A stretch of DNA of 48,728 bases, the filler included, from Stramenopiles sp. TOSAG23-3 (lineage: Eukaryota), in assembly GCA_900128585.1 (NCBI GenBank). It is 4 parts of 4 records of this genome, joined end to end, with 100 filler letters (N's around TTAATTAATTAA, not from the genome) between each part and the next. Parts side by side here need not be neighbours in the genome. Positions count along the whole stretch, not along the records: positions 1 to 22,278 come from LT642340.1; positions 22,379 to 44,554 come from LT642341.1; positions 44,655 to 46,641 come from LT645179.1; positions 46,742 to 48,728 come from LT645180.1. The stretch is one strand, 5' to 3'. The notes below the pieces were generated by a model that was given only the letters and a program-made list of their open reading frames with translations, did no database searches and was not told the DNA's origin. This document shows positions 54 through 47,738 of this stretch, one piece after another. A program made the translations under genes and the position numbers. Position 1 is the stretch's first letter. Each line of letters starts with the position of its first letter.

Positions 54-77
54 AAAACAAAAAATTGGCTATTATTT
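54..77 (+). repeat. Dispersed 3'-flank element copy (partial)
   Basis: AAAACAAAAAATTGGCTATTATTT. Confidence 0.7.
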
Positions 78-130
78 GGAGAAAAGTTCGCAGTACATGA
101 AGGAACGTAAACCTTTAATGGACAAAATCT

Positions 131-161
131 ATTACTTAAATAACAGCCAATTTTCTTGTTT
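131..161 (-). repeat. Dispersed 3'-flank element, downstream of the Kelch gene
   Basis: rc AAACAAGAAAATTGGCTGTTATTTAAGTAAT. Confidence 0.9.
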
Positions 162-189
162 CTTTTAGTTCAGAGAATATTTGAGTGAC

Positions 190-2826
190 TTACGCCACTG
201 CTTTGAATTTAGAAAACGAGTGTGCAGGAAGCGGTGTTTCAGCAGGTACAGTTATCCCATTCGAATCTAAGAGCGTACTGTTTTTCCGCTGCATGAGCAT
301 CTTGTTTTGATGTAAAGTTTCGCCCTCCTCTTGCAGTAGACGTATTTCCTCCTCTTGCGCGGAAATCATTCGCTCGAAATCCATCTTCTCTTCGCGTATT
401 GAATCCAGTTTTGCTTTCAGGTCTGTTTTCTTCTTTTCCTGCTCATCGATCGAAATCCTTAACAAACCTATGTCTTTTGAAACTTGCTCGTCCTCCAATT
501 CAATCCCATCACCAATGGAATTAAGCCGCTCCATGTCACTCTGCAATCTTGAAATTATCCCTGCGGCTTCGTTTCCCATTTCACGGTACCGTTCCTTCGC
601 AGACCGCTGAAAGTCAGCCCGCTGCTTTGCTTCATTGTAATTTTTTTCAGAAAGTTTTAATTGGGACAACATTTTCGAAGCCACCTCTCTCGCTTGCTGT
701 TCTCTACTTGTTGCTATATCCAGAAGCTTTAACTCTTGCTTCTCCTCGAGTTCATATTGTTTTCTATCTACTAAAGCTTCCCGCCCTTTCTCATCAATGC
801 TATGCTTGAACTGTTGATGCGACCCGATGAGTTTTGTGTATGCTTCATCCAAGCTGGCAGCAGTAGCTATGTTTTTCTCTATTTCTACTCGTTTCACCTC
901 CTCATTTGAAACCGTAGTGCCATCTATTCGCCTGGCTTGTTCTTGGGCGTACTGCCCGGATTGCTTGGATGCCACAGTGCCGTAGCCCAATACTGCGGCA
1001 TTTTGAGGTGGCGACACAGCTACTGACTCCGCTTCCGTTAAGAAGAATCCCCCCTTTTTTGGTGATGATTTATTCACTATGCTCGGAAAGACCAAATTTA
1101 GTGGTCGTGCATCCTGTGAAGTTTCGAAACGGGAAGCTTTTTCGGAAACAATTGGAGATGCGGTGCCTCTGGAATCAACGAGAGAATTTCTTCGGAGAAG
1201 CTCCATGTGCGCTTGCCTCCCTGCCCTTTTGTTCCTTGCAAGGTCCTCATCTTCCATACTTCGCCACGACTTTAACTTCCTACGATCTCTTGCTGGCATA
1301 AGCGATTTTTTAGCGGCGCAGTAAGACGGAGAAAGCGACATGGAAATAGCACGGGTTCTTGGGCTGTTCTGAACTCCTGGAGACGACGGGTTTTCACCAG
1401 GGGGTGCAAAGTGAACCATTTCTAACCCTTTCTTGGGGATTCTGGAGTGCGTCCCGTTTTTGTCTGCTCCTTTTGTCGGTGCATTCGCGTCGCTGCCAGT
1501 AAAGATAAAATCTGCACCTAGACTGCTGCTCTTTCCCTCTTTTGCACCACTGGTAGTTGAATGTGTTGGCGTTTTTGCATCGCTTTGAGTTGTATCGGTA
1601 GAGCTGCTCGATACACTTTCATTCACTTTCAGCTCACCGCTTGTGAACTGGCATTTCGAAATCAGATCACTAACATCAAGGTTCATAAAATCTCCATGGC
1701 AGATAGGCCAGCAGCATCCTCCAAAGACATACAAACCGCTTCCATCAATTTGGCCCGCTGCATGCCCTTCTCTCGGTTTAAGTAGTGCCCCGGGAGTTTC
1801 CATCAAAGAGTACCAAGCCATTGACTGCAGATTCAAAATGTGCACGTCGTTTGACCAGCCAACATTATACCCCCCAACAACAAGCATTAAATCACCAATC
1901 AGAGTTGCCGTGTGGCCGTATCTAGCTGTTGGGGGGGACCTTGTCTTTACCTTTTTCCACGTACCGGAAACTAAATTCAAGACAAACAAGTCGTTAAACC
2001 GCTGCTTCCCATCGTAGCCGCCAAAAATTACGACCCGTTCCTTCCAAGAAACTGCGGAATAAGCTGTGCGGGGGGACGGTGCCCTTCCGCGAGGGGGGGG
2101 GCAGCTGTAATCTCCAGTCAATAAATTAAGTTTGTAATATTCCAATATCCCAGACGATTTTGCTTTCTTAGATTCTGAGAACAAAATAAGGTCGCCCAAG
2201 GCACCATATGGGGCTTCCATTTGTACACAAGTCCACAGTAGACGAGAATTCAAATGCATTGATACCCCAGTGCCAATCACCCGGGCCCACTCTCCCGAGT
2301 CCAGGTCCAGCTTGAACGCGTCCTTTATCGGGTCTCCTTTCTTCGTCCTGCCTCCAAGTACGTAAAGGTGTCCTTCAACTATTGCGGAGCAATGCTGGTG
2401 CCTTGGAGACGGGCAATCCCCCCCGGCTTCTATCTTCGTCCACCTCTTTGATTCCATGTTGTAAATGTAAGTGTCGTTGAATAACTGCCCCCGACCCGAG
2501 TCACCCATGGTAGTAATCCCCCCGAAAACCACAATACTACGATTTTGGTAAATGTCTATACTATGCCCTTTCCGACCACAAGGGGAATTGGCTTTACCGC
2601 CTTCACCTTTTTGAACCATGACTTTATTCCACATCGAGTACAAGTCATTTTCATCATTAGATGACGTCGCCGATGCGCTTGAACTACCGCGCCTCCTCAT
2701 ACGACCATGCTGAGACGATTTTTTGCCACGACGGCGCTTCTCGTCTCCCGTTTCCTTCGTCCGGTGGCGCGTGCGAATCTTCTGGTTCGTCAAGTAGTCT
2801 CGTGAAAAAGTAGGAAGAAACGACAT
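190..2826 (-). CDS. Kelch-repeat beta-propeller protein with low-complexity linker and C-terminal coiled coil
   Basis: Uninterrupted ORF. Repeated Kelch motifs (IVVFGG, LYVLGG, VVIFGGYDG, MLVVGG, LYVFGG; PSPRHQH, PTARYGH, PREGHAA). E/K/Q-rich heptad C-terminus. First ATG at 2826 (track start 2832 is TTG). Confidence 0.9.
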   Translation of the reverse strand: MSFLPTFSRDYLTNQKIRTRHRTKETGDEKRRRGKKSSQHGRMRRRGSSSASATSSNDENDLYSMWNKVMVQKGEGGKANSPCGRKGHSIDIYQNRSIVVFGGITTMGDSGRGQLFNDTYIYNMESKRWTKIEAGGDCPSPRHQHCSAIVEGHLYVLGGRTKKGDPIKDAFKLDLDSGEWARVIGTGVSMHLNSRLLWTCVQMEAPYGALGDLILFSESKKAKSSGILEYYKLNLLTGDYSCPPPRGRAPSPRTAYSAVSWKERVVIFGGYDGKQRFNDLFVLNLVSGTWKKVKTRSPPTARYGHTATLIGDLMLVVGGYNVGWSNDVHILNLQSMAWYSLMETPGALLKPREGHAAGQIDGSGLYVFGGCCWPICHGDFMNLDVSDLISKCQFTSGELKVNESVSSSSTDTTQSDAKTPTHSTTSGAKEGKSSSLGADFIFTGSDANAPTKGADKNGTHSRIPKKGLEMVHFAPPGENPSSPGVQNSPRTRAISMSLSPSYCAAKKSLMPARDRRKLKSWRSMEDEDLARNKRAGRQAHMELLRRNSLVDSRGTASPIVSEKASRFETSQDARPLNLVFPSIVNKSSPKKGGFFLTEAESVAVSPPQNAAVLGYGTVASKQSGQYAQEQARRIDGTTVSNEEVKRVEIEKNIATAASLDEAYTKLIGSHQQFKHSIDEKGREALVDRKQYELEEKQELKLLDIATSREQQAREVASKMLSQLKLSEKNYNEAKQRADFQRSAKERYREMGNEAAGIISRLQSDMERLNSIGDGIELEDEQVSKDIGLLRISIDEQEKKKTDLKAKLDSIREEKMDFERMISAQEEEIRLLQEEGETLHQNKMLMQRKNSTLLDSNGITVPAETPLPAHSFSKFKAVA

Positions 2827-4475: not shown

Positions 4476-4610
4476 AGTGTCTAAGAGCAGGTAAGAATCT
4501 TAGGAATGCATTGTTACCCCCCTGCCACAAATTGGGGGCTGAGGAGTATCAGTGGAAAAGAAGAGGTAAACTTAAGTTAATCTTTGTAGGCTGCAATGTT
4601 TTAAACTTAA

Positions 4611-4655
4611 AAAACAAGAAAATTGGCTGTTATTTAAGTAATTAAATTTAGCTTC
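4611..4655 (+). repeat. Dispersed 3'-flank element, downstream of the 2OG oxygenase
   Basis: AAAACAAGAAAATTGGCTGTTATTTAAGTAATTAAATTTAGCTTC. Confidence 0.9.
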
Positions 4656-4805: not shown

Positions 4806-4830
4806 TTAAATAACAGCCAATTTTTTGTTT
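4806..4830 (-). repeat. Dispersed 3'-flank element, downstream of kinesin
   Basis: rc AAACAAAAAATTGGCTGTTATTTAA. Confidence 0.85.
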
Positions 4831-8064: not shown

Positions 8065-9241
8065 GTTTTACAAATTCAAACAATTTGTCTCAAAAGGCTG
8101 TGGATTGTTTTAAAGTGTTATGATACGCTTTTCGCTTAATACGTCAACTAAGTTTCGTTGTTGACTTTGCTGTTTCTTTAATCGTCCTTTCTCCTAAAAA
8201 TCTACAAGAGTTATCGTTTTTACTGCAGACGTATATATATAGATTGAACGTAAGAATTTTCCCTGCGCATCAGTTTTTTGTGATTGTTGTTCGTTGTGTT
8301 TTCATCTTACGTATATATTTTATTATTATTATTTTTTTTCTATTTTATTTATAGTAGTTGTTGTTGTTATTTCTCCTTCTTCTTCTTAAACACAACAACA
8401 ACAACAACGAAAAGAATTCCAGGCAGCGGTGTTAGTTAGATAAAGAAATAAATTATGATTTAAACATTACACAGCATTGGAACTAATGATTTAGTTTATT
8501 TTCTTAACGTTTCTTTTTTTCTTTCTTTCTTCCTTCTTCTTTCTGCCTTATTTTTTATTATTATTTTATTTTATTATTTGGACCATTATTTCTCTTTCGC
8601 ACTTCTTCTTCTGTGGTTGGTGTATTATTTCATTTAGAAGATCCATCCTTAATTGTTTAAATGCTATTTCTATATTATACTAATGAAAAGTGTCTGGTGG
8701 TATTGTGTTACATTATATTAATAGTAATTATTTTATAATAAAATATATTTTATTCTTCAAAATATTCTTCTTTCTATTTTAATTTAATTTTTTATAAATA
8801 CTGTATTTATAATTGAAAAAAAGAAGATAAAATTATTATCTTTTACATTTTATAAATAGGAAATATGTATAGCAATAATATTTCTAAATATTACTTGTAT
8901 TTCAATATAGTATACTAATTTATTATATCTATAGGAATGTATTATGGAATTTAGTTCATAAGCCCATCCTCATAGTGGATATAGCCCTGCCCGACAGAAC
9001 GAAGAATGAAGAAAAGGGTCATATTGAGGTTTTAATAGGTAAGTAGGTAGGTAGGTTGGTTTAATAGGGTAGGTAGGTAGAAATAGTTAATTAATACAGG
9101 TAAATAGTAAGGAAGGAAGTGTTTTTTTTATTTTTATTCGATGAAGAAGAAAAGTGCGCGTGTTCATTCAATGTTCATTCATTCCTTGTTGTTACATAGA
9201 CACAGTATAAAGTTGCGACTCTCTCTTACGAAAAAAGAGAC

Positions 9242-9335
9242 GAAGAAGAAGAAGAAGAAGAAGAAGAAGAAGAAGAAGAAGAAGAAGAAGAAGAAGAAGA
9301 AGAAGAAGAAGAAGAAAGAAGAAGAAGAAGAAGAA
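9242..9335 (+). repeat. (GAA)n microsatellite
   Basis: Read directly from the sequence. Confidence 0.95.
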
Positions 9336-9745
9336 AGAGAAACGAGGGAGGAGGAAGGAGGAGGGATGAAAAAAAAGAAGAAGAAGAGAAAAAAAGAAGA
9401 AGAAAAAAAGCCTACCTCTTATATACCGGTACTATTTACCTGTATTTATAATTCGGTCGGTGGTCTTCGTCGTCGATGATGTAGTACTACTTCGAGTACT
9501 ACGAGTACTACACAAGTAAGTAAGTAAAATTTTGTTGTTGTCGAAAAAGAGTTCAACTTGAATTTTTTTCAGGTGTTTGGTATTGTACATAAAGCGTAAG
9601 AATGATAAAGAGTGAGCGGTTTGCTTCTATCGCTTACATACATAAACGTACCTGTTACTTATTGGTAGGAATATTTTCTTTTACCGTTTGTGGTAACTCC
9701 TTTTTTCTGCTTTTTGCGTTTGTGCTCGTCCAGACGATTGCCACG

Positions 9746-15448: not shown

Positions 15449-15559
15449 CGGTAACCTTCCTTTTCTTTAATTCTTCTCTCTCTCTCTCTCTCTCTCTTAA
15501 TATCAAGATCACTCATTTACTAATAACATGCTTTGATCAACTTTCTTCTTTGTTTTTAG

Positions 15560-15610
15560 TAGAAGAAGAAGAAGATGATGAAGAAGAAGAAGAAGGAAGA
15601 AGAGGAAGAA

Positions 15611-15645
<35 letters not shown>

Positions 15646-15662
15646 AGAAGAAGAAGAAGAAG

Positions 15663-15691
<29 letters not shown>
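15560..15691 (+). repeat. (GAA)n microsatellite
   Basis: Read directly from the sequence. Confidence 0.95.
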
Positions 15692-15694
<3 letters not shown>

Positions 15695-17018
15695 TTAATA
15701 TTAATATAACCTTCCTCCTTCTTTCTATCTTCAAATATTATTTTATTTTTTTTTCGCAAAAAAAAAAATAAACAACAACACACAACACACTTATTAATAT
15801 ATTTAATTAATATTTATACCGTTGTTCCTCCTCACTCGCTTTTTTATTTTAAGTTACACAGCATAGGAATCATCAGCATTTTATTTATTATTTGTATTCT
15901 TTCTTTCTTCTTCTTCAGAAGGTTTTTCATATTTTTACAATAATTAATATTACACAGTATTGTAATATTTTAATACAGCACAGTATTAAAGTAAATACAA
16001 TATACCGATTTTTTTTTAATAATAAATATAAACTTCATCTTCTTATCTTCAATTCGACATTATCATAGACTAGCATGACAATAACATAAACAGCATAATA
16101 TTTCTTTAATTAAGGTATCAATATGTTTATGTAATTTAATATTACTTAATAGTAAATAAAGGTCCTTAATATTTATTCATCCCTTTTGCTGACCCATTTT
16201 TTTTTCAAATGACAAAAACGAAATTTAGATAGGAGTATTTTATTTTACAATACGGATCATTTTTTATTTGTTGGATCCTCTTTCCTCTTCGAACTTCTTT
16301 CTTTGTCTCTTTCAACGAATATTAATTAAATTATTGCCATTGATTCTTCTCACAATTCTCAATTCTCAACAATTATTATTCATTTCGGTATGATTATAAT
16401 GTCGTCTAATATAATAATAATAGCGCTCTAGCATGGTTTTTGTGATGTATAATAAATAATATTAAAAATAATTTTAAAACAAATTTTTTTTAAATTAATA
16501 ATAATAGTTTTTATGAGAAAATAATTTCTTACAATACACATATTATACAGACACATCTCATAACAAATACATAGATCTAGTGTAAGAAAAGGCCGTTTTT
16601 TAATTTTTTTTTACCTTTCTTTCTTATTTTTTTAAAAATAATAATCATTATTATAAGAACTATAAAAAAATAAATATTTAACAGAGGACAAAACAAAAAA
16701 AAGAAAAACATCTTTTCTTTTCATACTAATAAAAAACAAAACTGTCATGTTAAGACTTCGTGTGATTGATGATGATTACTGCATTAAAAGTATTGGAAAT
16801 ATAAAATTATTCCAGATGTCTTTGGTCTTGTCTTTTTGCCTGGTTATAAATTGATTGTTCGTATCTTTTGTGTGTTTTCAGAGGGGGGGGGTTTTCAAGA
16901 GAAATACCATGAGATAAACTCCTTGTGATCGGTCGTATGCATTAAGAACAGAAAGGGGTAGATTAATTGTGAGTGACGGTGTTGTAGGGGTTTATAGAAA
17001 TAAAAGAAATCCATCGAT

Positions 17019-19025: not shown

Positions 19026-21033
19026 TGTGCAAAGTGATACACAGTCCTCAGCGTCCGGTAAAATTAGGAAGGGTATGAGACTTTTGTACATTGGAGAAAC
19101 GGACGTGTCATCTAGCACTATGAAAGAGGTAGTTGCTATAATAAAGGAACACGAACGTCCAGTTAAATTTTACTTCCGAACAACTCCAAGTCGAAGTCTG
19201 AGTCCCGATATTATCAAGCAGAAACTGAGGAGTCGGTTCACCCCCACTCCAAAAACTCGAATCCCAAAACGAGTGTCCGAACACTTTGTTTCCGTTGTGT
19301 TTGGCCCTGGTCCCATGGGCATGGAGCTGGTACAACGACGAAAAGGCGGTGCGATGATAAAAAGTATATCAAAAGGTGGAGCAGCAGATCAATCTGGAAA
19401 GCTTCGACGAAGCATGGTTCTTGCAACTGTGGATAATGAAGATTGCACAAAACTGAAACTGGCAGAAGTGCTAAAAAAACTCTCGGTGGCTCACAGGCCT
19501 GTTGAAATCCAATTTCATGAATTGTCTAGCATCGATCACAGGTATGATCCGAAAAAAATGCGCAAAATTGAAAGTTTAATCTCAACCACATTTCAATTTA
19601 AAGGCTCCTTGGGTTTAGAGCTTGCGCAACGAAAAAGTGGGGGTGTCATTGTTAAGAAAGTGCTTCAAACTGGTCTGGCTGCAGGATCTGGAAAGATCAG
19701 GCAATCTATGGTGCTGGTTAAGATTAATGGAATCGATGTTAGCAAAAAATCACTGGTAAAAGTTCTCAGTATGTTAAAATCTAGTGATCGACCAATAACG
19801 CTGATGTGGAAGAGTGCCCCGAGCAGATCTGTGTCGCCTGATGCCAAAGAAATACGCCATCAAAGATGGGAAGAAGAACGGGCATTTAAAGAGTTTTTTG
19901 ACAAAATTGATAAAGATTCTTCGGGCGTGGTGACCAAGGCGGAGCTTATGGCCGCGCTGCAGAACAATGCCTTGAAAGAAGAACTCCGCAAGATTGTTGC
20001 GGAGTACAGTAACCTTCAGTCTCTTCTTGACTTGAATAATTTTACTACCAGCTTTGACCGAATACAAGCAAGTTCAAATGATGGGGTAACGTTTCAAGAT
20101 CTGCAAAATTACGTTAAGAAAACTAATGAAATGCTTCAAATGTCCAAGTCTATTCGAGACGTTACAACAATTTTTCGAGGCGAAGGATTCTTGGGTCTTA
20201 AGCTTGCTCAACGAAAGTATGGTGGTGTAATTGTAAAGGATGTGCTTCCGGGTGGATTGGCTATCCAGACTAGAAAGATTCGGAAAGCTATGGTTTTGAA
20301 AACCATAAACTCTGAAAATGTTTCTAAAAACTCTTTGTCTGAAGTCCTTGCCCTTCTTCAATCCAGTGCTCGTCCGCTCAAATTGGTGTGGAAGTGTGCC
20401 CCGTCGCGGTCCATTTCTCCTTACGCTCGCGAAATTAAACGCGTAAAGATGGAAGAAGAAAAAATGATTGATGAATTTTTCCGCTCTATTGATGTTGATT
20501 CTTCGGGTTTTATAACAAAAAAGGAGATATTGAGACACTTGCAAGATGCAGAGAATTTTGAGTCCATGATATCCAAATACAAAAATTTAAAGCCTTTGGT
20601 AAAATCAAAGACATACGCGAACACTTTTAAGCAAATTGATGTGGACAATAGCAAAGGAATTAGTCTGGGTGAGCTGAAAGCATTTTTAAAGGCCGTGTCC
20701 ACTCCGCCAGAAGATAATGAAAAGGGAGGAGGGGAAATGAAAGAGACAATAGTAAGTAAGGCTGTCAAGAAACGCGGTCGAATCAAACTTAGGCAGTTCT
20801 TCAGAAAGATTGACAAGGACGACTCGGGATCAATATCTAAAAAAGAACTGCTGCAAGCGCTGCAAAGCTGCGATATAGTATCTGGTATAATTCCAGCATT
20901 TCCCAATCTAAAACCTTTGGTAAAAAGTCGAACATACTTGCAAACTTTTAAGAACATTGATACTGATAAAAGTGGTGACATTTCATTCGAAGAATTGTCG
21001 TACGTCCATTTCCCTGCCGGCGCCAAAGAGTAG
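18994..21033 (+). CDS. 4 PDZ-like repeats + 3 EF-hand pairs (likely continuation of the 17019 gene after a frameshift)
   Basis: Repeats MGMELVQRRKGG/LGLELAQRKSGG/LGLKLAQRKYGG ...SGKIR.SMVL..INGIDVS..RP. EF loops DKDSSGVVTKAE, DVDSSGFITKKE, DVDNSKGISLGE, DKDDSGSISKKE, DTDKSGDISFEE. Starts at TTG, not ATG. Confidence 0.8.
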   Translation: MQKHGGSLFISVQSDTQSSASGKIRKGMRLLYIGETDVSSSTMKEVVAIIKEHERPVKFYFRTTPSRSLSPDIIKQKLRSRFTPTPKTRIPKRVSEHFVSVVFGPGPMGMELVQRRKGGAMIKSISKGGAADQSGKLRRSMVLATVDNEDCTKLKLAEVLKKLSVAHRPVEIQFHELSSIDHRYDPKKMRKIESLISTTFQFKGSLGLELAQRKSGGVIVKKVLQTGLAAGSGKIRQSMVLVKINGIDVSKKSLVKVLSMLKSSDRPITLMWKSAPSRSVSPDAKEIRHQRWEEERAFKEFFDKIDKDSSGVVTKAELMAALQNNALKEELRKIVAEYSNLQSLLDLNNFTTSFDRIQASSNDGVTFQDLQNYVKKTNEMLQMSKSIRDVTTIFRGEGFLGLKLAQRKYGGVIVKDVLPGGLAIQTRKIRKAMVLKTINSENVSKNSLSEVLALLQSSARPLKLVWKCAPSRSISPYAREIKRVKMEEEKMIDEFFRSIDVDSSGFITKKEILRHLQDAENFESMISKYKNLKPLVKSKTYANTFKQIDVDNSKGISLGELKAFLKAVSTPPEDNEKGGGEMKETIVSKAVKKRGRIKLRQFFRKIDKDDSGSISKKELLQALQSCDIVSGIIPAFPNLKPLVKSRTYLQTFKNIDTDKSGDISFEELSYVHFPAGAKE

Positions 21034-21297
21034 TCTGTAGGACCCAGTGATGCGGTGTGTGAATGCACATATGAATCCTTCATTGGATAGTCCGGTGTAT
21101 AAAACATACTATATATTTTGTTTTTTTTTTAAACACAAAAATAGTTATATTCTGTTATTTAGAAACCGTAACGAACCCGTGCTTTATCAAAGAGCGAAGA
21201 TTCTCTTTCACTGAATCGTCGCAACCTTCGACGCTGCCTCTGCAGATACTGTTTGAAGCTCTTCCCTTGCCCAGACAAGAAAATTAGTACAACACTT

Positions 21298-23352: not shown

Positions 23353-23410
23353 GATTAGGGTATGAGGAAGCTAAATTTAATTACTTAAATAACAGCCAAT
23401 TTTCTTGTTT
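23353..23410 (-). repeat. Dispersed 3'-flank element (long form), downstream of FGGY
   Basis: rc AAACAAGAAAATTGGCTGTTATTTAAGTAATTAAATTTAGCTTCCTCATACCCTAATC. Confidence 0.9.
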
Positions 23411-27297: not shown

Positions 27298-27361
27298 AAA
27301 AACAAGAAAATTGGCTGTTATTTATAAGTAATTAAATTTAGCTTCCTCTCATACCCTAATC
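27298..27361 (+). repeat. Dispersed 3'-flank element (long form), downstream of TatD
   Basis: AAAAACAAGAAAATTGGCTGTTATTTATAAGTAATTAAATTTAGCTTCCTCTCATACCCTAATC. Confidence 0.9.
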
Positions 27362-27606
27362 CTAACTTGGTTCTGAAATTTTGTTTCGTTGTTGGTTGTC
27401 AATCACCGAGGGGATGATATATATTTTTGTTTTTTTTAAGGTACGAAAAATAAAAAGTCTTACAGTAAACAACCAGCCTATTTTGTTTTTAAAGTATTAA
27501 AAAACAAATTATACGCAGTATTAAATACCACCTTCTTCCCGCACGTAAAGAATTTAACTTCCACGCGCCCAGCAACTCTTCTTCAGTCTTCCACAAGCCT
27601 CGCGAC

Positions 27607-29519: not shown

Positions 29520-29790
<271 letters not shown>

Positions 29791-30219
29791 TCTAGAATAT
29801 CGATACACATCCTCATCAAAACCATTTATTATAGTTTTTAAATTTTTATTATTTTAGCCTTGCCTCCTTTCCTTTCCTTGCCTTGAATCCTTGAATCCTT
29901 GAGAATAGCAAAATATGACAAGTCTTTCTATCGGATTTTATTAATATTTATACAGTATTATATAATACATTATTTTAATACTATGTAAAATAAATTATTG
30001 TACTATATATTAACGTATTCTAAAAATCTTTGCGAATTCTTTTTTTTTATTCTTATTTTCTTATTTTTAACTTTTTCATCAAAATGGTGTCATGAAAAAC
30101 ATTGGTATAGCATGGTTTTTGTTTTTTGTGGTCAGCACAGGAGGAAAAAATAATTGAAGAAAAAAGGACCGTACAGGGTACAGTGAGAGAGAGAGTAGAA
30201 AAGGACTAATATTTAGTGG

Positions 30220-30277
30220 AGAAGAAGAAGATACAAAAGAAAGAAGAAGAAAGAAGAAGAAGAAAGAAAGAAAGAAA

Positions 30278-30338
<61 letters not shown>

Positions 30339-30367
30339 AAAGAAAGAAAGAAAGAAAGAAAGAAGAA
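30220..30367 (+). repeat. (GAAA)n polypurine microsatellite
   Basis: Read directly from the sequence. Confidence 0.95.
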
Positions 30368-30697
30368 GGAGGTATACGGTATTTATATTATATCGGTACT
30401 ACCTACCACAGTAGTGATTGGTAAAAGAATAATGTACAATAAAAAAAGAGGTTCTATCTATCGGATAATCTGTCGAGTGGAACAAGTTCAATATGAATGC
30501 AACAATGTCTTCATCATTGAGTACATGTATAGATAGACGGAGTGAAGATACAACAGATAAAGTTGTAGACGAGTCATGCTTATTGAGCCATCGAGAACGA
30601 TAGGTAGTAGAAAGGAATTTTGCTATAGCCGATATACCTCTGGGTTGGAAAACTTCGATCGACGGTGCACACACAGAGTATAATAATAATAGAAGAG

Positions 30698-38057: not shown

Positions 38058-39890
38058 ATGAATAAAATGAAAGCGAGCGTTGAAGCCAAAGCACAGGCAC
38101 GAGCAGAAGCTCGGAAAGCTGCAGGCAAACCCCCAAGTTTCCCAGAGAAAATGCTACCAAAGATCCCTCTGTTAGGGCCAATTTTACTGAGATTGTATCT
38201 AATTTGGGACTGGTTTTCAAAAACAAGATTCTGGCACACCATCCAAGCTATTCTCGGATACGTGGCCTTGGTTGCAATGGGTGTTGTACTTGCAAAATTG
38301 CAAGCAGCCGTCCCTTTCGAGAAAGACACGCCTGTTTACTCAGCCGTGTCCCAGCCAGAAGCGAGCAAACCTGCAGCGAACGACATGCTCAATGCCCTGG
38401 GGGCAGCAAGCACGAACCAAAAACTTGAAAATACGTATTACTTATATGCCTATGAAAATGGAAAATCTGCCGTGCGCGTGTGCACGGATTTGACCGAGAC
38501 CGAATTCGAAGACATAACAAAAGTTGGGCCGTACAAAAAATGGGATTCCATGGACCCAAACATGATAAAAGAATTTAAAGCGGACGGCTGCAAAAATGCG
38601 ACAATATTGGCATACAATGGTGGTTGTACCGACACAATCGTGTTTCCGAATCTCGGTGAACCGCACAATTTTCATTCACAACCCGGCAATGTTGAGGCAC
38701 AAAGAGGTCGCTGCGGATCCCCAGGCGTTGTCGACAAATTGTTTGCCAAGCCACAGACCCCGGCAGCGGACGGGTGGCTATGGCACTACATGATACGGGA
38801 TGTAAATCCTATTGATTTTAAACCAATTGAATTGACGAATTTGACATGCACTACTTCTGCGTGCGAAACCGCAAAGTGCATGGACAACGCATGCCATAAC
38901 CCTGCAGAAACCTGCAATGGCTTTCAGCCAACTACAAGGTGCGGGGCAGGCGGTGCTTCCTACAATACTACCGGGACTTTTGAAGGATGTAACAAGGCAC
39001 TCGGAAACCAACTGACCGGAGAATATAGTCAAGGCTATTGTGATTGTGGAAACAATCGTAAAGTATGGATGTGCGGAAAATACGCGTACGACTTCAAGTG
39101 TGCAGACACTTGTAAGTGCAACAACCCAATTAACAATGTTGCACCGACATGCACTGGCGCTGGAGAGCAGACATGCAGCTGCAACATGACAACAGTTAAA
39201 GGGGGAGATAAACCGCCTGAATGGATGGAAGACAACCCTCAATACGAAAACTCAAAGTGTATTCGCAGTTATGGCCGGTTCAATACTGTGGAATGCGAAG
39301 GTAAAACGGTATTGAGCTACGCAATGCAAATCGATTGGGTTGTTACTCTGTTCACTGCTGCCATTATAATCCGTATTGGAGTGCAGGTCTGTTTCTTCTA
39401 CTGGGCTTGTGTGGAAGACGAACCCCATTATCGAATGTTGATTGCGAACGAAACCATCTTGGTTCTGTATTTCCTTTACAGTTGTAAGGCACAATACGGA
39501 GTCCGAAATTTGAACGAGGCCTTAGAGGCGGAATATTTTCAAGCTTGGCCATGGTTATTTTCATTACTGGATAACGTGTTGGTGACGATCGCTATGTTGG
39601 GGGTCTCGTATGGAGCAGACCCTTTCCCCTCCCTTGGCCGTGGCAAATTCACACTTTTTCTGTTGTGGATTGCTGCATTTAAAGAGGTTGGAAAACTGCT
39701 CAAGTCTCTTTACACGACTTACTCTAAAAAATCCTACCGGCAGGTTGGCGACAGAGGCCTCCGCTATCCTTGGTTGCCTTGCATCAAAAAAGATATGCCG
39801 TGGTGTATCACGATCACACAAGAAGAATTCGACGAGCTCAAGCTTAAGAAAGAGGAAGCAAAAAAGGCGAAGTCGGTCGAAGTTGCGTGA
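38058..39890 (+). CDS. Multi-pass membrane protein with a large Cys-rich extracellular loop
   Basis: Hydrophobic ILGYVALVAMGVVLA, then a Cys-rich region with N-glycosylation sequons (NAT, NLT, NTT, NMT), then several hydrophobic segments. Confidence 0.75.
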   Translation: MNKMKASVEAKAQARAEARKAAGKPPSFPEKMLPKIPLLGPILLRLYLIWDWFSKTRFWHTIQAILGYVALVAMGVVLAKLQAAVPFEKDTPVYSAVSQPEASKPAANDMLNALGAASTNQKLENTYYLYAYENGKSAVRVCTDLTETEFEDITKVGPYKKWDSMDPNMIKEFKADGCKNATILAYNGGCTDTIVFPNLGEPHNFHSQPGNVEAQRGRCGSPGVVDKLFAKPQTPAADGWLWHYMIRDVNPIDFKPIELTNLTCTTSACETAKCMDNACHNPAETCNGFQPTTRCGAGGASYNTTGTFEGCNKALGNQLTGEYSQGYCDCGNNRKVWMCGKYAYDFKCADTCKCNNPINNVAPTCTGAGEQTCSCNMTTVKGGDKPPEWMEDNPQYENSKCIRSYGRFNTVECEGKTVLSYAMQIDWVVTLFTAAIIIRIGVQVCFFYWACVEDEPHYRMLIANETILVLYFLYSCKAQYGVRNLNEALEAEYFQAWPWLFSLLDNVLVTIAMLGVSYGADPFPSLGRGKFTLFLLWIAAFKEVGKLLKSLYTTYSKKSYRQVGDRGLRYPWLPCIKKDMPWCITITQEEFDELKLKKEEAKKAKSVEVA

Positions 39891-40187
39891 TTTGGGGCCC
39901 GTCAAATATATTTGGGAGAATCCCCCGGAACGGCTTCAATCTGCTTTTGTCAAAAAGCGCTTTAAAAATTCAAAATCAGTTTGATCGCGTCACCGCCGGG
40001 GAATCACGAGATACCCGTCTCGTACATTTTTTACTCAAAAATTATTTGTATCAATATTTGGTCAGAATTGTTTTTGCTTGGTGGGAAAAAACATTTTACC
40101 TCTAGCAAAAAGCGTTTTAACTACATGTAATGAAAAATACGAATTTAATTAAATTTTGTGAAAAGTGAAGGAACGTAAGAACCTTTT

Positions 40188-40235
40188 AAAACAACAAAAA
40201 ATTGGCTGTTATTTAAGTAATTAAAATTGATCTTC
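40188..40235 (+). repeat. Dispersed 3'-flank element, downstream of the membrane protein gene
   Basis: AAAACAACAAAAAATTGGCTGTTATTTAAGTAATTAAAATTGATCTTC. Confidence 0.85.
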
Positions 40236-40981
40236 ATCCTGTTCCGCGAGAATGAATCTGCTCCTTTTGTCCATTCATTAAAGGTTTACGTTCCTTTAAT
40301 TGCTAATTTTTTGTTTTTAAGTGAATATTAACTTTGGTATTATACCGGTACCTGTACCAAAAATGAACAGGAACGGGTAGAATATTATTATACCCAGGTA
40401 TCCGCGAATGGGGTAATTGAGAGGTATAATAATTATTATTATATTAAAAAAATAATATTTGGCCGTTGTAGCTTTTCGTAGCAAGCAGGCTCTGAGAATC
40501 GTCTATCAAAATACTCTTATTAAGTATGTGATTTAATAATAATAAGGAGGAGGACGGGGGAAAGAAGAAAGAAGAAGAAAAAAAATAAAAAAAGAAAGAG
40601 AGATAATCTTTCTATCGTTACATCTAGATCTAGATATACAAGATTATAAATAAATAGAGCATGAAAATAATTTCAATCTTTATGTTTATGTAAGGAACGA
40701 GTAATTTTAAATTTCACATTTGTCCTAAAAACTTAGCAGGGTGTCGAAAAGGACCTGGGCGTGTTAACCGTTTCCGGTCGGGGTGGGACACGAAAAGATG
40801 TTTCAAAACATTTTTTCTAATGCCGATGATGCCGCAAAGATCATTTGTGGGGACGATCCGAACAAGGCCGTAATGGTGAGGTACCTTCGAAAGCGTGAGA
40901 TTGTCTACCTGGCCGTAGACGATGGGACTGTCGGCTGGGCAGCCACCTGCGAAGAGTCCGCTGATGTGGTTGGAGATCTTA

Positions 40982-41446
40982 TTAGAGCTTGTCCGCTGCA
41001 TTTTCCGTATGATGAGCCGCAGAAAGCATTAGAATGGGTGGGAGAGGCGCCTTCCTTCGTTTAATGCCGCACGCGACTGGGTTCACTTCGATGTTGGGGG
41101 TAAATTTTAGCAACGGCATTGGGCCACCAATTTCTTCCAGCCGTTCGTCGACGGTTAGGTCGCGGGTCAGGTTGTACTTTACCATGCTTCTGTCCTGCAG
41201 CCCGTCGTCCGCCCCGGATTGGGAAGCACATGAACTTTCCGACAGCGCCGACCCCGGACGGGACCCGGACGAAAGCGCGTCCGATTTTTCACGGGAGCTC
41301 GATCGAGACGACGGCTTGCTAATTGTCCCTCCTCTTTGATGCTTTTCTATGGTGCTTGGCAAAGTCACCCCGCCCTCCTCCGCTCTTATGGGGACGATCG
41401 TTGTGACAACCGCATCAATGGAGCCGTCACTGTTGGCACTGCTCAT
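40982..41446 (-). CDS. Hypothetical Ser-rich protein (possibly continuing in another frame to ~40714)
   Basis: ATG-initiated 154-aa ORF within a GC-richer island (about 40730-41450); no recognised domain. Confidence 0.4.
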   Translation of the reverse strand: MSSANSDGSIDAVVTTIVPIRAEEGGVTLPSTIEKHQRGGTISKPSSRSSSREKSDALSSGSRPGSALSESSCASQSGADDGLQDRSMVKYNLTRDLTVDERLEEIGGPMPLLKFTPNIEVNPVACGIKRRKAPLPPILMLSAAHHTENAADKL

Positions 41447-42566
41447 GGTTTAGAAAGGAATGATCCTACCTTGTTAACGGCACAAAATTATCGTCCGTTA
41501 AGTGGCGGAGCCCTTTTGCACAATCCCACAACTCTTCCCTTAGTTCTCTATTCATGTAAATACCTATGGTCGTCCTGTCATGAAGTGCTTTACAATATAT
41601 AACCGATACTTCCTTCACTTACATATATTATTATATATATTTTTTTATACCTTTCTTCTTCTTCTTTTCTTTTTTCTTGTTACAAATATAATAATATAAT
41701 ACGTATATAGAGTGTACGTAAGGAAGTGCTTAAGTTTAAAAAAGAGTATTTAGATGATATCTTATATTATTATTAGTCAGTCGTCAATTATACCATCATT
41801 TATATAAAACATAATTGTGTGTTATTATATGTTGTTACAGTATGTTAGTTATTTATTTTATCTAATATATTTTTATAAATTATCTTTTTTCTTGAATCCA
41901 TCCATCCATCCATCCCTCCCTCCCTCCCTCCCTCCCTCCCTTGTTTTGTTGTTGTTGTCAGTTTTAAATGATACCTGATGATTTAATACGTTAAGTGTAT
42001 ATATTCTTATTCTATATATTTATTTATAATAAAGTATATTTTATTAAGAATGGGTGGGGTTTTAACGACATTTAAAAAAAAAAAGAAGTGATTCCAATAT
42101 TATACGTACGAAGATAGAGAGCTCTAATAAAATACAAAAAAATTGTATAATTTAAATTATATATTACTGTATAATTATACTAATTATTATAATTAATAAA
42201 CATGAAGAAGAGAACGCACAGCAGATTATTATTATTTTATTATTTAATAGAGTTTTTGGATTCTCATCATCATTCATCTTGTTCTTCTCTCTTCTTCATT
42301 CTTCTTCTTCTTCTCTCTTCTTCATTCTTCATTCTTCTTTATTAATAATTATTATTACGAAGTACCTGTACGACTTGTAAAAATAGGAGACGAAAGCAGC
42401 GTGGTGGAAAAGAACATTCGGTCTTGGTAAAATCCAAACTAATAAATTTTAAGAAAACAAAATCAAAAAAGCCTTTCATATTTTTACGAACTTCTCAGCT
42501 CGTAACCCATTTGCAAAAAATTGGATATGTCACCAACTTCTCATAAGATTTAATTGTTCATTGGAA

Positions 42567-42627
42567 TAGGGTATGAGGAAGCTAAATTTAATTAACTTAA
42601 ATAACAGCCAATTTTCTTGTTTTTTAA
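42567..42627 (-). repeat. Dispersed 3'-flank element (long form), downstream of the vWA gene
   Basis: rc TTAAAAAACAAGAAAATTGGCTGTTATTTAAGTTAATTAAATTTAGCTTCCTCATACCCTA. Confidence 0.9.
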
Positions 42628-42768
42628 GATTTAAAGCAAAACATCGCAGCGCACTTGGTATTTGCTATTTTTCATTTGATTCTCCTCATAAACAGCTTTC
42701 AACTTCTACAGTTAGTAAGCCGTCCGTATATAATTTTAGCAAATGGAAATTGCGCACCAGGTAAGAGC

Positions 42769-43920
42769 CTACGATATGATACACGAGCCACCACCTGGCA
42801 GGTGGTGCAATCTAATCCATGGTTTCGTCTGCTTCTTCTCAGGGCACATCGCCATTGGGCTTTCTGCCAACCTGTCCTTGACGTAATTATAGAACTGCCT
42901 TCTCCCCATAGATGGGTGCGGGTAATTTCCCTCCGGCCCACCTAGTACATTGGCAATCACCGTGCGTATTTGGGAGTCGTTCAGCACGGCTTCGTCGAGT
43001 AAATCAAATTCTTTTAGATGGCACCCAAACTCACGTATACGATGCAACGGCACCCCATACGTCAGCCACCGATTCTTGGACCTGACTTCGTCGTTTTCCC
43101 CGAACAAATCGTCCAAGCAATCCATCTGCAATTCAAGGTTGTCGTCCACATTATTCCAGTAGTTAACAACACTGTCGTCATCGGTGCACAGTCGAATGAT
43201 TACTCTTATTGGCAAATATGACAACGGTTTGAGGGCTTTTGAGACGTCCCCATCTGACGATTTTCCATCAGTAAAAATAGTCAACGATACCCACTGACCA
43301 CTTTGCTGTAGCTGCTGCTTCATGGACTGGACCCGCGTAACTACTTCCTTAACGTGTTTGCACAGCGGCGTCACTGTGGCGTGTAGTGAAGGGAAAATAA
43401 GGAGGTTAGCTATTCAGTTGTCGAAGAGTTGGGAGTGAAATAAAAATGAGATAAACTTACTACCCCCGGGGGAACCGTCCAAGAGCGAGCCCAGGAGCAT
43501 GGTGTTCTGGTTACTCTCAGGACCCGCACCGACGACAATTGGACTACCGTTGTTCAGCAAGCGGAATTCGGTAGGTGCGTTGGCAGCGTTGGCAAACTCT
43601 GCGTGAAACTTAATGGCATCGACCATCTCTGACCAGCGGGTGCACCCAATCTTCGCCGCGTGTAATCCTCTCGACGTATTCTGGAGCCTGTTCCCATCCC
43701 CAGAGGCCATCGACCCGCTGTCGTCCACGATAAAGACGCGATAGCACGTCTTACCAAGACCCGAGACCATCAAGTTAGCCAGTCCCAGCGGCCAGTTCCT
43801 TTGCCGCAAGAAATGCATCGCGGCATTCGTATTTATCGTCAGCCCCCCCATCGCCCCAGAGTCCGGGACTGCGTCCACCACGGAGACCGGCACAGCTTGT
43901 GCGGTAGCCAAGGATGCCAT
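42769..43920 (-). CDS. vWA-domain protein with C-terminal CAAX; two exons (43920-43461, 43373-42769), 354 aa
   Basis: MIDAS motif DDSGSM, TRWSE, spliced GGMTPL, IFTDG. 87-nt intron with GTAAGT donor, GCTAAC branch site, polypyrimidine tract and CAG acceptor. C-terminus GGGSCIIS. Confidence 0.85.
43374..43460 (-). other. Spliceosomal GT-AG intron (87 nt)
   Basis: GTAAGT...GCTAAC..CTTATTTTCCCTTC..CACAG; splicing joins two ORFs into a coherent vWA domain. Confidence 0.85.
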
Positions 43921-44419
43921 ACTCAATAGATTTGGTATACTGTTTTCTATGTGGCGAAAGTCGATAATTTATCGTTGCAGTTGATCTCTCTCTCATTACT
44001 TTTGTGAAAGGAGTAAAATCAAATCTACATTTAAAAGGAAGCGAGGTTTAAATAGTACTGTATATAATATATAAGTAGATAGTTTTTTTGGTGAGATAAT
44101 GAAGAAGAAGTGCTGTTTTTCTCCTCTACCAAGGTACTTACTTTAAAGAACACCTTGGTAGTCTATATTATTTAATAGTACACACCATGGGATTTTTGAT
44201 GCCCAACTTTGAGCAGATTAAAAAAAACAAAACAGACGACTACGCGTGGCCACTACGAGGTATAATATTCAGTAAGAACACACCATGGGATTTTTGATAG
44301 ATACCTTACTTGAGCAGATTAAAAAATACCAGACGAATACGTCCGGTAAAAAAGAAGAAGAAGAAAGGGGAGGAGGAGAGAGAGAGAGAGTGAATAAGAG
44401 CATGCACAGATTATTATTC

Positions 44420-44489
44420 TCTCATTCTTCTTCTCTCTTCGTCTCTCTTCTTCTTTCTTCTTCTTCTTTCTTCTTCTTCTTCTTCTTCT

Positions 44490-44553
<64 letters not shown>

Positions 44554-46641: not shown

Positions 46642-46741
46642 NNNNNNNNNNNNNNNNNNNNNNNNNNNNNNNNNNNNNNNNNNNNTTAATTAATTAANNN
46701 NNNNNNNNNNNNNNNNNNNNNNNNNNNNNNNNNNNNNNNNN
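46642..46741. other. Artificial contig-join linker
   Basis: N44-TTAATTAATTAA-N44. Confidence 0.95.
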
Positions 46742-46971
46742 ATTATTATTATTATTATTTTATATTTTTTTATTGAAACAATTCTATGTAAACTATTATA
46801 TATATATTATATATATAACTTCTGCGTTTACACATAAATGTTGGATGATTTTTTGAGAATCAGAACGGCTATGTTACCATCGCGGACTGTGGATATGTGC
46901 TTTACATTTCTTGCTTTGTTTCGTGTACGTAGTAGTAGCATTATTTTTTATTATCGTCCATTGTAGTACCC

Positions 46972-47631
46972 ATGTCGTGGGAGAGTGCACGAAAGCGAGC
47001 TAGGCAGCAGGAGAGACTAGTAGAACGGAAGATTGAAGAACTTCGTGCCGTCAACTCTTCGTTGACGGTGAGTGGTGGTGGTTATGATCCTGAAGCAGCG
47101 AACTATCCGAAAGAGGCCGGGTTGATGAATGAGATAGAAAACCTGTTTACGTCTTTGTGTGCGTGCGTGGACGACATGACCAACGTTGCGTCTGGGGAAC
47201 GAAGCAAGCAGCAGCAAATTCGTCGTTACAGGCAGGTGATACAGGAAAACCGTACCGAGTACCAAAGGATTGCGCGCAGCCTTAAAGAAAAGCGGGAGAG
47301 TGCTGCCCTGTTCGGCGACATGAATAGCGAATTTAACGGGAAGAACTCGGAGGTGGACCATTTGTTAAGGGAGCGACGTGGACTGGAGTCGGGGCTCCGA
47401 AGCGCGGACTTGCTCTTGGACCAAGCGGACGCGACGAAGGCCGAGCTGCTCGGCCAACGTAGTATCTTTGAAAGCACTGGCAGGCGGCTCATGGGGCCGA
47501 TTTTGAACGCTTTCCCTGTGCTGAACACGTGGATAGAAAAAGTAAAAAAGAGGAAACAGAGGGACCAGATTGTGCTTGCGGCCGTCATTGCAACCCTGGT
47601 GCTGTTCTTGTTGTGGTGGATCAGGCGGTGA
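46972..47631 (+). CDS. GOSR1: Golgi SNAP receptor complex member 1 (GS28/Gos1, Qb-SNARE)
   Basis: MSWESARKRARQQE, RYRQVIQE..EY.R, LLRERRGLE..AD.LL.QA..T..L..QR, FP.LN, KQRDQIVLAAVI C-terminal TM anchor. Confidence 0.9.
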   Translation: MSWESARKRARQQERLVERKIEELRAVNSSLTVSGGGYDPEAANYPKEAGLMNEIENLFTSLCACVDDMTNVASGERSKQQQIRRYRQVIQENRTEYQRIARSLKEKRESAALFGDMNSEFNGKNSEVDHLLRERRGLESGLRSADLLLDQADATKAELLGQRSIFESTGRRLMGPILNAFPVLNTWIEKVKKRKQRDQIVLAAVIATLVLFLLWWIRR

Positions 47632-47680
47632 TGGATGAACGCGGGGGTGCAGCACTCAGAAAACTTATTTAAAAAAGAAA

Positions 47681-47738
47681 AAAACAAGAAAATTGGCTGT
47701 TTTCTTATAAAAACAAAAAATTGGCTTTTTTTAAGTAA
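47681..47738 (+). repeat. Two tandem partial 3'-flank elements, downstream of GOSR1
   Basis: AAAACAAGAAAATTGGCTGTTTT and AAAAACAAAAAATTGGCTTTTTTTAAGTAA. Confidence 0.8.

Follow-up and report, generated by a model that had tools for sequence, protein, structure and literature searches.

The window, the whole stretch of 48,728 nt that was analysed, comes from the assembly of Stramenopiles sp. TOSAG23-3 (GCA_900128585.1) and contains N runs between joined contigs. About 9 of its roughly 22 genes have a copy of a short repeat behind them, in line with an earlier note on this DNA, which had remarked that not every gene has a clear copy. Among the genes named in that note, Kelch, 2OG oxygenase (P4H-like), kinesin, FGGY, TatD and desaturase match Pfam, while the ORFs called vWA, GOSR1 and membrane protein have no Pfam match. 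The repeat is real, as claimed: its core 20-mer (AAAATTGGCTGTTATTTAAG) has 7 matches in the window at no more than 3 mismatches, against 0 in 100 shuffles, and a head profile made from 143 heads of loci other than the window detects 10 head copies at E <= 0.04. The heads lie 27-299 bp downstream of stop codons, at distances that had been given correctly and that vary without any fixed value. By contrast, a supposed degenerate copy at 27471-27492 on the minus strand is unsupported, because the profile does not match it even at E <= 10. The remaining repeats in the window are (GAA)n/(GAAA)n simple sequence. The features related to the repeat are the following, where T1 and T2 are two tail types and A, B and C are types of body adjoining the head.

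54..79, plus strand: T1 head ending after ~26 nt (profile match 54-76, E 0.04); its opposite strand would be the 3' terminus of a retroposon copy
80..161, minus strand: T1 head and B/C-type body with an internal deletion (profile match 126-161, E 4.7e-11; repeat depth over 79-179), 28 nt past the Kelch stop
4610..4655, plus strand: T1 head and first bases of an A-type body (profile match 4610-4650, E 2.1e-13), 135 nt past the 2OG-oxygenase stop
4806..4830, minus strand: T1 head ending after ~25 nt (profile match, E 4.8e-06), 117 nt past the kinesin stop
21004..21096, minus strand: internal fragment of the element ORF (tblastn, 31/31 residues identical to P0068 283-313)
21097..21131, minus strand: truncated T2 head, the second tail type (3 mismatches to the 20-mer; repeat depth over 21100-21131)
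23353..23410, minus strand: T1 head and 58 nt of A-type body (profile match 23372-23410, E 5.5e-13), 114 nt past the FGGY kinase stop
27298..27420, plus strand: T1 head and ~120 nt of A-type body (profile match 27298-27340, E 4.7e-10), 75 nt past the TatD stop
40166..40187, plus strand: inverted fragment of B/C-type body immediately before the next head (compared by eye with family C rows)
40188..40293, plus strand: T1 head and C-type body (profile match 40191-40228, E 4.7e-10; repeat depth 40173-40299), 297 nt past the stop of ORF 38058-39890
42544..42553, no strand: first copy of the 10-nt target-site duplication (TSD) of element 42554-42624 (counted on the sequence)
42554..42624, minus strand: T1 head and truncated A-type body, 71 nt (profile match 42584-42624, E 1.6e-11), in a tandem spacer, 141 nt past the stop of the ORF pair 42769-43926 and sense to that gene
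42625..42634, no strand: second TSD copy of element 42554-42624 (read on the sequence)
47670..47679, no strand: first copy of the 10-nt TSD of element 47680-47755 (counted on the sequence)
47680..47755, plus strand: two tandem T1 heads and a short body, 76 nt (profile matches 47680-47701 and 47709-47738, E 6.4e-06 and 0.011), 49 nt past the stop of ORF 46972-47631
47756..47765, no strand: second TSD copy of element 47680-47755 (read on the sequence)

The presence of the repeat on several contigs had led to the proposal that it is genome-wide, and it is indeed widespread, with at least 131 stretches matched in a metagenome scan. In run X20, the summed contig depth, which is not a copy number, reaches 16360 at position 27323 against about 13 in the flanks, and contigs from three runs part from the window sequence at 27421. 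For comparison, we used 130 related metagenome loci among the matches listed, chosen by the exact 20-mer, only one of which overlaps the window. Roughly 220-270 heads were counted in related loci among these matches. The consensus of 154 head copies runs from AAAACAAG to ...AATTAAA and is preceded by a weak TTA. In the 130 listed loci, this head of ~40 nt stands before at least three body types (A, B and C), and within each of these families a truncation series is visible in which the head stays constant; the aligned 5' ends and ragged 3' ends that had been described are correct for the window copies and for the related loci alike. All three bodies lead to the C-terminal end of a single ORF encoded on the opposite strand. 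The second tail, T2 (21 copies, of which several have 11-16-nt duplications), behaves in the same way as T1, and both start with AAAAACAA. Read on the strand of the element, copies terminate in ...CTTAAATAACAGCCAATTTTCTTGTTTT-3', that is with TTGTTTT, and a poly(A) or simple-repeat tail is absent from their 3' end.

Then, we searched for target-site duplications, as the earlier note had suggested. For 40 of 160 copies, an exact stretch of at least 11 nt from the 26 nt immediately upstream of the head is found again no more than 1.5 kb downstream, compared with 6/160 and 7/160 for control flanks. After filtering, 41 copies are fully defined, and in these the duplication abuts the head: copy ends ...CTTGTTTT touch it directly. 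The duplications measure 10 nt (8 copies), 11 nt (8), 12 nt (12), 13 nt (7), 14 nt (4) or 15 nt (2), and the elements that they enclose 24-335 nt. Two copies in the window, 42554-42624 and 47680-47755, have TSDs of 10 nt. A search for pairs of empty and filled sites found none.

A constant head, a varied cut-off and TSDs of 10-15 nt indicate 5'-truncated, target-primed retroposons. We thus consider it probable, at about 0.78, that the element of 25-60 bp represents the conserved final ~40 nt of a retroposon family, viewed on the opposite strand, whose copies arose by target-primed reverse transcription. In this process, one DNA strand would be nicked after an A-rich stretch, the element RNA would be copied from its 3' end, with synthesis often halting early, and the second strand would be cut ~12 bp away. 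The expected outcome would be copies whose 3' end is constant, whose 5' side is cut off at an arbitrary point and which have a TSD of 10-15 bp. The family would comprise several subfamilies with a common tail, namely the 3'-UTR types A, B and C, in addition to the second tail T2, and its longer copies would extend into the C-terminal end of a single ORF, at least 851 aa long. Because no reverse transcriptase gene was found in the family, we infer the reverse transcription step and the retroposon class from the anatomy of the copies. The last of three readings offered by the earlier note, a short mobile element at transcript ends, is essentially correct, the copies being single insertions flanked by TSDs.

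The heads could also be the terminal inverted repeats of MITEs or of a DNA transposon, solo heads being decayed or deleted derivatives. Facing pairs do exist in the window (54+/161-, 4610+/4830-, and 40188+ with a weak partner near 40300), and 27 were counted in the related loci; these pairs however account for at most 54 of the ~220-270 heads, the others being solo, and a duplication surrounds the pair in only 1 of the 27 (L011), whereas duplications flank one-ended copies. The earlier note had held that TSD-flanked paired copies would make the repeats MITE termini, a rule that is inapplicable as worded to such single insertions. The weak TTA ahead of the head could be a target preference, and the common start of T1 and T2 would also suit terminal repeats, but the length of the TSDs varies from 10 to 15 nt and the points of truncation are spread in an unbroken series. 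Neighbouring heads are also often back-to-back (13) or in the same orientation (62), as expected from independent insertions in a hot spot, and no transposase domain was detected in 95 long ORFs. MITEs and TIR DNA transposons, with both ends inverted and a duplication of fixed length, were rejected on the single enclosed pair and the variable TSDs, and we regard this origin as very unlikely. A SINE, with a 5' part derived from tRNA, 5S or 7SL and an internal pol III promoter, was also rejected: a search of Rfam gave no family for the window or for 7 loci that contain long copies. Since bodies B and C lead into the very ORF end reached by A, they are 3'-UTR variants and not SINE bodies.

The earlier note had also proposed a search for an autonomous partner. 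Long pieces of an element ORF (744-851 aa) were found, with no recognised reverse transcriptase or endonuclease. Fragments of this ORF are abundant (67 matches in a representative search), and no relatives longer than 1359 aa were found. For the longest pieces (P0068-P0071), Pfam gave nothing above threshold and PDB no match by sequence, and the AlphaFold2 model of the ORF is unusable (pLDDT 30.9). Among 95 ORFs of at least 330 aa in the related loci, neither a reverse transcriptase nor a transposase domain was detected. In the nearest named Atlas clusters (score 0.86-0.87), only 42% and 20% of the members have zf-RVT, which is a lead only. Insertions of the element also reshape host genes. 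The host PDZ/EF-hand ORF 18994-21033 takes its final codons and its stop from the opposite strand of the fragment 21004..21096, and in the database protein P0072 a host domain is joined to a piece of the element.

We then investigated the placement of the heads relative to genes, which were approximated in the related loci by ORFs of at least 150 aa. In the listed related loci, heads occur in 45 of 52 convergent spacers, 12 of 43 tandem spacers and none of 30 divergent spacers, i.e. 76, 17 and 0 heads for ~28 kb of each spacer class, and only 2 heads were found in 267 kb of ORF sequence. The window agrees, with no head in any divergent spacer; the lack of copies in divergent 5' spacers, observed earlier, is a genuine and strong depletion. 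In GC content (0.33) divergent spacers equal the others, and A-rich hexamers are about as dense in them. Copies persist almost only in the spacers behind genes, chiefly between convergent genes, and in either orientation.

The orientation of the heads bears on the reading favoured by the earlier note, a sense-oriented 3'-end or 3'-UTR system. In its broader form, the head would be a functional sense-strand element (poly(A)/cleavage, termination, RNA-binding-protein or small-RNA site), evolved as such or co-opted from a retroposon tail, a fate with a precedent in the SIDER retroposons that the cited reports place in Leishmania 3'UTRs (PMC2323293, PMC5689007). The claim that copies always lie on the sense strand is true in the window, but of the 10 window copies 8 lie between convergent genes or beside a single gene at a contig end, positions in which a copy is sense to some gene either way. 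In the tandem spacers of the related loci, 9 heads are sense and 8 antisense, and, of 114 heads whose upstream neighbour is known, 14 are not preceded by a stop on their own strand. Where both element ends are defined in convergent spacers, the head side is the nearer one to its sense gene 8 times and the farther one 7 times. Facing pairs exceed back-to-back ones among opposite-strand neighbours within 400 nt (27 vs 13, not deduplicated), which leaves a weak orientation effect possible. The heads do follow stops by 27-299 nt, but at no fixed distance and behind a minority of the window genes, and truncation leaves copies of any length, as short as 24 nt. The head has no Rfam match and no significant fold (z-scores 0.56, 0.76, 0.48 and -0.16).

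RNA-library contigs extending from the upstream gene, such as the X18 contig 38914-40201, also include heads, and one X1 contig has 13 unmatched T before 42595, which would correspond on the minus strand to an A run inside a head. These contigs indicate that heads are present in transcripts and nothing further: contig ends at repeats are an assembly effect, not RNA ends, and the lone T-run contig may derive from any copy. A poly(A) or 3'-end processing signal was rejected on the minority of genes concerned, the spread of distances and the two orientations in tandem spacers. Together with the TSDs and the arbitrary truncation, these points speak against the favoured reading, and we judge a functional 3'-end element very unlikely. 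A tempting false lead is thereby removed: a long conserved motif behind unrelated genes would be the shared terminus of truncated mobile-element copies, and not a new 3'-end signal.

The placement bias of the retroposon tails could result from purifying selection in a compact genome or from active targeting. With the same anatomy, integration may be directed to transcription-termination zones instead of harmful insertions being lost. The extreme ratio of 76, 17 and 0 heads in about 28 kb each, the similarity of the spacer classes in base composition and in density of target-like hexamers, and the repeated clustering of insertions in the same short spacers would fit such targeting, and retrotransposons of compact genomes can target narrow windows, as described for Dictyostelium TRE5-A in the cited reports (PMC9012585, PMC5391098). 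Selection would nevertheless account for the same pattern, there is no fixed head-to-stop distance, and re-insertion into earlier heads (20 tandem heads lie 25-37 nt apart) can build clusters without gene-directed targeting, so that we hold targeting as a tentative alternative, rather unlikely at present. A more specific version, in which a retroposon lineage, by a large ORF of at least 851 aa with no recognisable reverse transcriptase or nuclease, directs integration into termination zones between convergent genes in the compact genome of a marine protist, its tails perhaps becoming later parts of host 3'UTRs or terminators, is doubtful. Confinement to 3' flanks makes the organism a clean case for asking whether retroposons survive in compact genomes by targeting or by selection.

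Among known systems, the family resembles the non-LTR (LINE-type) retrotransposons and their truncated or non-autonomous derivatives in its constant 3' end, arbitrary 5' truncation, variable TSDs and lack of terminal repeats. Stringent LINE/SINE pairs share 3' tails, and the subfamilies likewise share one tail of ~40 nt, as LINE derivatives share that of the LINE. A poly(A) or simple-repeat 3' tail is common, but not universal, in non-LTR retrotransposons; unlike poly(A)-tailed members, the tail ends here with TTGTTTT, and the TSDs are rather tight (10-15 nt, mode 12). Also unlike these retrotransposons, the element ORF shows, over up to 851 aa, no domain of a reverse transcriptase or endonuclease. 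Like Tourist- or Stowaway-like MITEs, the copies are short, AT-rich, abundant, near genes and sometimes in inverted pairs, but most are one-ended, with TSDs of variable length, and only 1 of 27 pairs is TSD-bounded.

SIDERs lie mostly in sense orientation, unlike the tandem-spacer heads, which show no sense preference. According to the cited reports, Leishmania SIDER1 and SIDER2 are short truncated retroposon remnants in 3'UTRs (PMC2323293, PMC5689007), and the copies studied here are similarly concentrated behind protist coding sequences. SIDERs are extinct and reported to regulate mRNA, whereas the present copies keep clean duplications. As in Dictyostelium TRE5 and TRE3 (PMC9012585, PMC5391098), retrotransposons of a gene-dense genome would be confined to narrow 'safe' intergenic zones; the TRE elements lie at a fixed distance from tRNA genes, whereas here the zone, on the 3' side of protein-coding genes, has no set distance, and targeting is a candidate only. 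Judged by its anatomy, the element is probably a further example of a known retroposon type, with a large ORF matching no known family, and the discovery of a full-length copy could extend the catalogue of protist retroelements by one lineage.

The window is gene-dense, intron-poor and eukaryotic, with several contigs joined by N runs; its Pfam families include Kelch, 2OG oxygenase, kinesin, GH10, SH3, choline kinase, PDZ/EF-hand, Tet/JBP, FGGY, TatD, desaturase, SURF6 and LRR proteins. A 3-kb piece of it is present in 20 of the 24 public sequencing runs listed, labelled as marine, seawater or aquatic metagenomes; 15 of these runs are on record as RNA, and 9 studies are represented. Hence, the host is a marine protist with a wide distribution. 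Regarding gene structure, a GT..AG intron of 87 nt (43374-43460, - strand) joins ORFs 43414-43926 and 42769-43374, and was confirmed by one contig of sequencing run X1 that skips it. Two long ORFs overlap on the same strand (17019-19025 and 18994-21033, +) and are probably one gene broken by a frameshift or a short intron. In addition, an RNA-library contig of run X3 links 40127 to 41440; the 1312 nt skipped (40128-41439) have non-canonical ends and could be a strain structural variant or the product of a chimeric contig.

The repeat described in the earlier note is real. Its core, AAAATTGGCTGTTATTTAAG, was found seven times in the window at up to 3 mismatches versus none in 100 shuffles, and a profile built from 143 copies outside the window recovers 10 window copies at E <= 0.04. 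One copy previously proposed, at 27471-27492 (-), has no match to this profile even at E <= 10. The distances reported to the preceding stop codons are right, the copies lying 27-299 nt behind them. By scanning public metagenome contigs with a 20-mer, we obtained at least 131 stretches, giving 130 loci (439 kb in total), which hold 220 distinct copies of the repeat at up to 4 mismatches. Of these loci, only L091 (331 nt) is shared with the window; as the overlap is limited to this short locus, the loci represent independent DNA carrying the same repeat. Moreover, 1052 contigs of run X20 align to the window, and their summed depth at 27323 reaches 16360 versus about 13 in the single-copy flanks. 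This depth cannot be read as a copy number, but it means that the conserved block at the end of each copy (hereafter, the head) is present in a very large number of different contigs.

The head spans about 40 nt, starting with AAAACAAG and ending in ...GTAATTAAA, and has a weak TTA ahead of it (154 copies). It is followed by at least three different bodies, A, B and C, for which a script counting marker motifs found 22, 28 and 10 copies, respectively; the copies outside these counts are shorter than the markers or divergent from them. Deeper into the element, A, B and C merge into one sequence, the C-terminal end of a single ORF on the opposite strand. Related elements thus carry alternative 3'-UTRs (A, B or C), and the head corresponds to their 3' terminus read backwards. 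As noted earlier, the 5' ends of the copies are aligned and their 3' ends ragged: the stop point differs from copy to copy, the longest collinear copies reaching about 485 nt.

A second conserved terminus, T2, was observed at 21097-21131 (-) of the window and in 21 copies in the loci (e.g. L005, L015, L065 and L077). It starts with AAAAACAA, as the first head does, and differs afterwards. T2 copies also have truncated bodies and duplications of 11-16 nt, and the T2 body meets the A-type 3'-UTR around a common ...CCCTAATCC... stretch. T2 therefore looks like the alternative tail of a sister subfamily. About 55 nt from the terminus, both tail subfamilies also conserve a stretch resembling a telomere repeat (on the element strand, TTAGGATTAGGG):

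Telomere-repeat-like stretch in the element 3'-UTR (A-type and T2 bodies), examples
23353-23370
27345-27362

We then searched for target-site duplications, comparing the 26 nt directly upstream of each head with the 1.5 kb downstream (exact match of at least 11 nt). The upstream flank is repeated downstream in 40 of 160 copies, while two control flanks, shifted upstream by a further 30 and 60 nt, recur in 7 and 6 of 160, respectively. These flank repeats are located exactly at the breakpoint of the element body. By requiring that the duplication abut the head, dropping head-internal repeats and removing one of 42 rows as a contig-end artefact, 41 copies with both ends defined were retained, with element lengths of 24-335 nt.

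Duplication length in copies with both ends defined
10 nt: 8 copies
11 nt: 8 copies
12 nt: 12 copies
13 nt: 7 copies
14 nt: 4 copies
15 nt: 2 copies

Duplications in the window
42544-42553 with 42625-42634: 10 nt
47670-47679 with 47756-47765: 10 nt

The inferred nick has mostly A before it and T after it, as read by eye from the rows and uncounted. Target-primed reverse transcription classically leaves this footprint: one constant end, another end truncated arbitrarily and duplications of variable length. The element behaves like a family of LINE-type retroposons whose copies are heavily 5'-truncated. No insertion polymorphism was seen among the few overlapping locus pairs.

The window contains facing pairs of heads, which suggested that heads could be the inverted termini of a MITE, and the loci hold 27 such pairs among the approximately 220-270 heads counted. 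The earlier note had held that paired copies flanked by target-site duplications would point to MITE termini; a duplication surrounds only 1 of the 27 facing pairs (in L011), and we rejected this reading. Neighbouring heads less than 400 nt apart are in the same orientation in 62 cases, facing in 27 and back-to-back in 13 (overlapping loci not deduplicated). Among the same-orientation neighbours, 20 are spaced by 25-37 nt, consistent with the insertion of new copies into the A-rich ...TAATTAAA stretch of older heads. The spacers act as hot spots for insertion and do not represent single composite elements.

Next, the ORF of the retroposon was characterized. The 141-aa translation of its end matched 67 proteins in a library of 1.84 billion representatives, nearly all of them fragments of at most 266 aa. 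Word-index searches retrieved longer pieces: P0068 (776 aa), P0069 (744 aa), P0070 (851 aa) and P0071 (678 aa); no relative longer than 1359 aa was found in the protein searches. A strongly conserved core, at about residues 378-690 in P0070, is common to these four proteins; it includes a Cys/His cluster (CPC...C...HFIGC) and several acidic and aromatic motifs that are invariant. None of the four passes the threshold of a Pfam family (the zf-primase match, at E 0.0095, falls short of its cut-off) or has a sequence relative in the PDB, and the AlphaFold2 model from the four-sequence alignment is unusable (pLDDT 30.9). In the ESM Atlas, the clusters nearest to the long pieces are unnamed and eukaryotic; in the nearest named ones, 42% and 20% of the members have zf-RVT (scores 0.87 and 0.86), a lead only. 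A tblastn search with P0068 for a full-length element gave fragments plus one relative, at L043:943-2341 (-), with 34% identity over 415 aa. With such a low identity, the ORF family is old and diverse within these genomes. No core match was found in viral contigs.

The loci contain 95 ORFs of at least 330 aa; each is either an ordinary host gene or unknown, with no reverse transcriptase among them. We therefore infer the reverse-transcription step from the footprint and not from a gene, and no membership in a named clade can be claimed. We weighed an Exo_endo_phos ORF (L049:2520-3845) as a candidate LINE endonuclease and discarded it, since its strand is the wrong one with respect to the neighbouring head. 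Within the window, a 93-nt piece of the element ORF (21004-21096, -) is identical to P0068 283-313 at 31 of 31 aa. It lies at the end of the PDZ/EF-hand gene, where host ORF 18994-21033 (+) appears to take its last codons and its stop from the opposite strand of this piece. In the database protein P0072 (647 aa), also retrieved by the word-index searches, a host DUF229-family domain (PF02995) runs straight into a piece of the element ORF; judging from this fusion, insertions in sense orientation may lengthen the reading frames of the host.

We then investigated the placement of the copies, approximating genes by non-overlapping ORFs of at least 150 aa. First, 222 distinct heads were classed by their neighbours on both sides; second, heads were counted per spacer type in the 117 of 131 sequences retained after overlap removal.

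Placement of 222 distinct heads
Between convergent genes: 72
Tandem spacer, sense: 9
Tandem spacer, antisense: 8
Divergent spacer: 1
Inside an ORF: 2
Without one or both neighbours: 130

Heads by spacer type in the 117 sequences retained
Convergent spacers: 45 of 52 with a head; 76 heads; 28.3 kb
Tandem spacers: 12 of 43 with a head; 17 heads; 29.5 kb
Divergent spacers: 0 of 30 with a head; 0 heads; 28.3 kb
ORFs: 2 heads; 267 kb

The bias in placement is extreme. As the loci were picked for having a head, the share of spacers with a head is inflated; the distribution among spacer types is unaffected by this choice. In tandem spacers, the element is always close to the stop of the upstream gene, in either orientation. 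A looser 9-mer search found a head in 1 of 32 divergent spacers (in L072, the same head as the divergent one among the 222), and the divergent spacers of the window have no copy, as already reported. Target availability does not explain the emptiness of the divergent spacers in the loci, since their GC is equal to that of the others (0.33) and their density of A-rich hexamers similar. The remaining repeated DNA in the divergent spacers of the window is (GAA)n/(GAAA)n simple sequence. Most of these promoter-side spacers hold long tracts of 60-190 nt, which are common in related loci too, with a BLAST depth that reaches 164:

(GAA)n, (GAAA)n or complementary pyrimidine tracts
8510-8577
9227-9410
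15557-15708
25791-25850
29563-29751
30216-30371
44411-44553

The BLAST depth peaks at 9227-9410, 15557-15708, 30216-30371 and elsewhere correspond to such tracts and not to copies of the element.

In convergent spacers, the head start is closer to its sense gene in 50 of 72 cases, as expected, since the other side is lengthened by the body. For the 15 convergent cases with both element ends known, the split is 8 to 7, so no strand preference is seen; the excess of facing over back-to-back neighbours (27 to 13) leaves room for a weak one.

The earlier note had proposed a sense-strand 3'-end or 3'-UTR system. RNA-library contigs running out of the upstream gene do include heads, so that at least some heads are in 3'UTRs or read-through RNA. 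All four aligned runs consist of contigs, from which RNA starts, ends and strand are unreadable; thus, no weight was given to contigs ending at or inside heads, to a single 13-T loose end before 42595 (X1) or to short A-rich loose ends behind 40228 (X3), and uncovered parts, such as 40813-42064 in X20, were not counted as evidence. The head shows no significant RNA fold and no Rfam match. Moreover, an upstream neighbour is known for 114 heads, 14 of which are not behind a same-strand stop. The duplications, the truncation series, the occurrence of both orientations and the patchy distribution among genes make a dedicated 3'-end signal unlikely. Heads of the retroposon may occasionally have been co-opted by the host, as described for the SIDERs of Leishmania (PMC2323293, PMC5689007).

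Finally, we compared this family with known systems. The motif strings and their complements are absent from the searchable full-text literature, in which the matches were unrelated, and our literature search on retrotransposons between convergent genes returned nothing specific. The TRE elements of Dictyostelium are likewise confined to safe zones in a compact genome (PMC9012585, PMC5391098). Unlike that of TRE elements, the zone of the present element is the 3' flanks of protein-coding genes, with a convergent:tandem:divergent ratio of 76:17:0, a clean example of such confinement that may merit follow-up.
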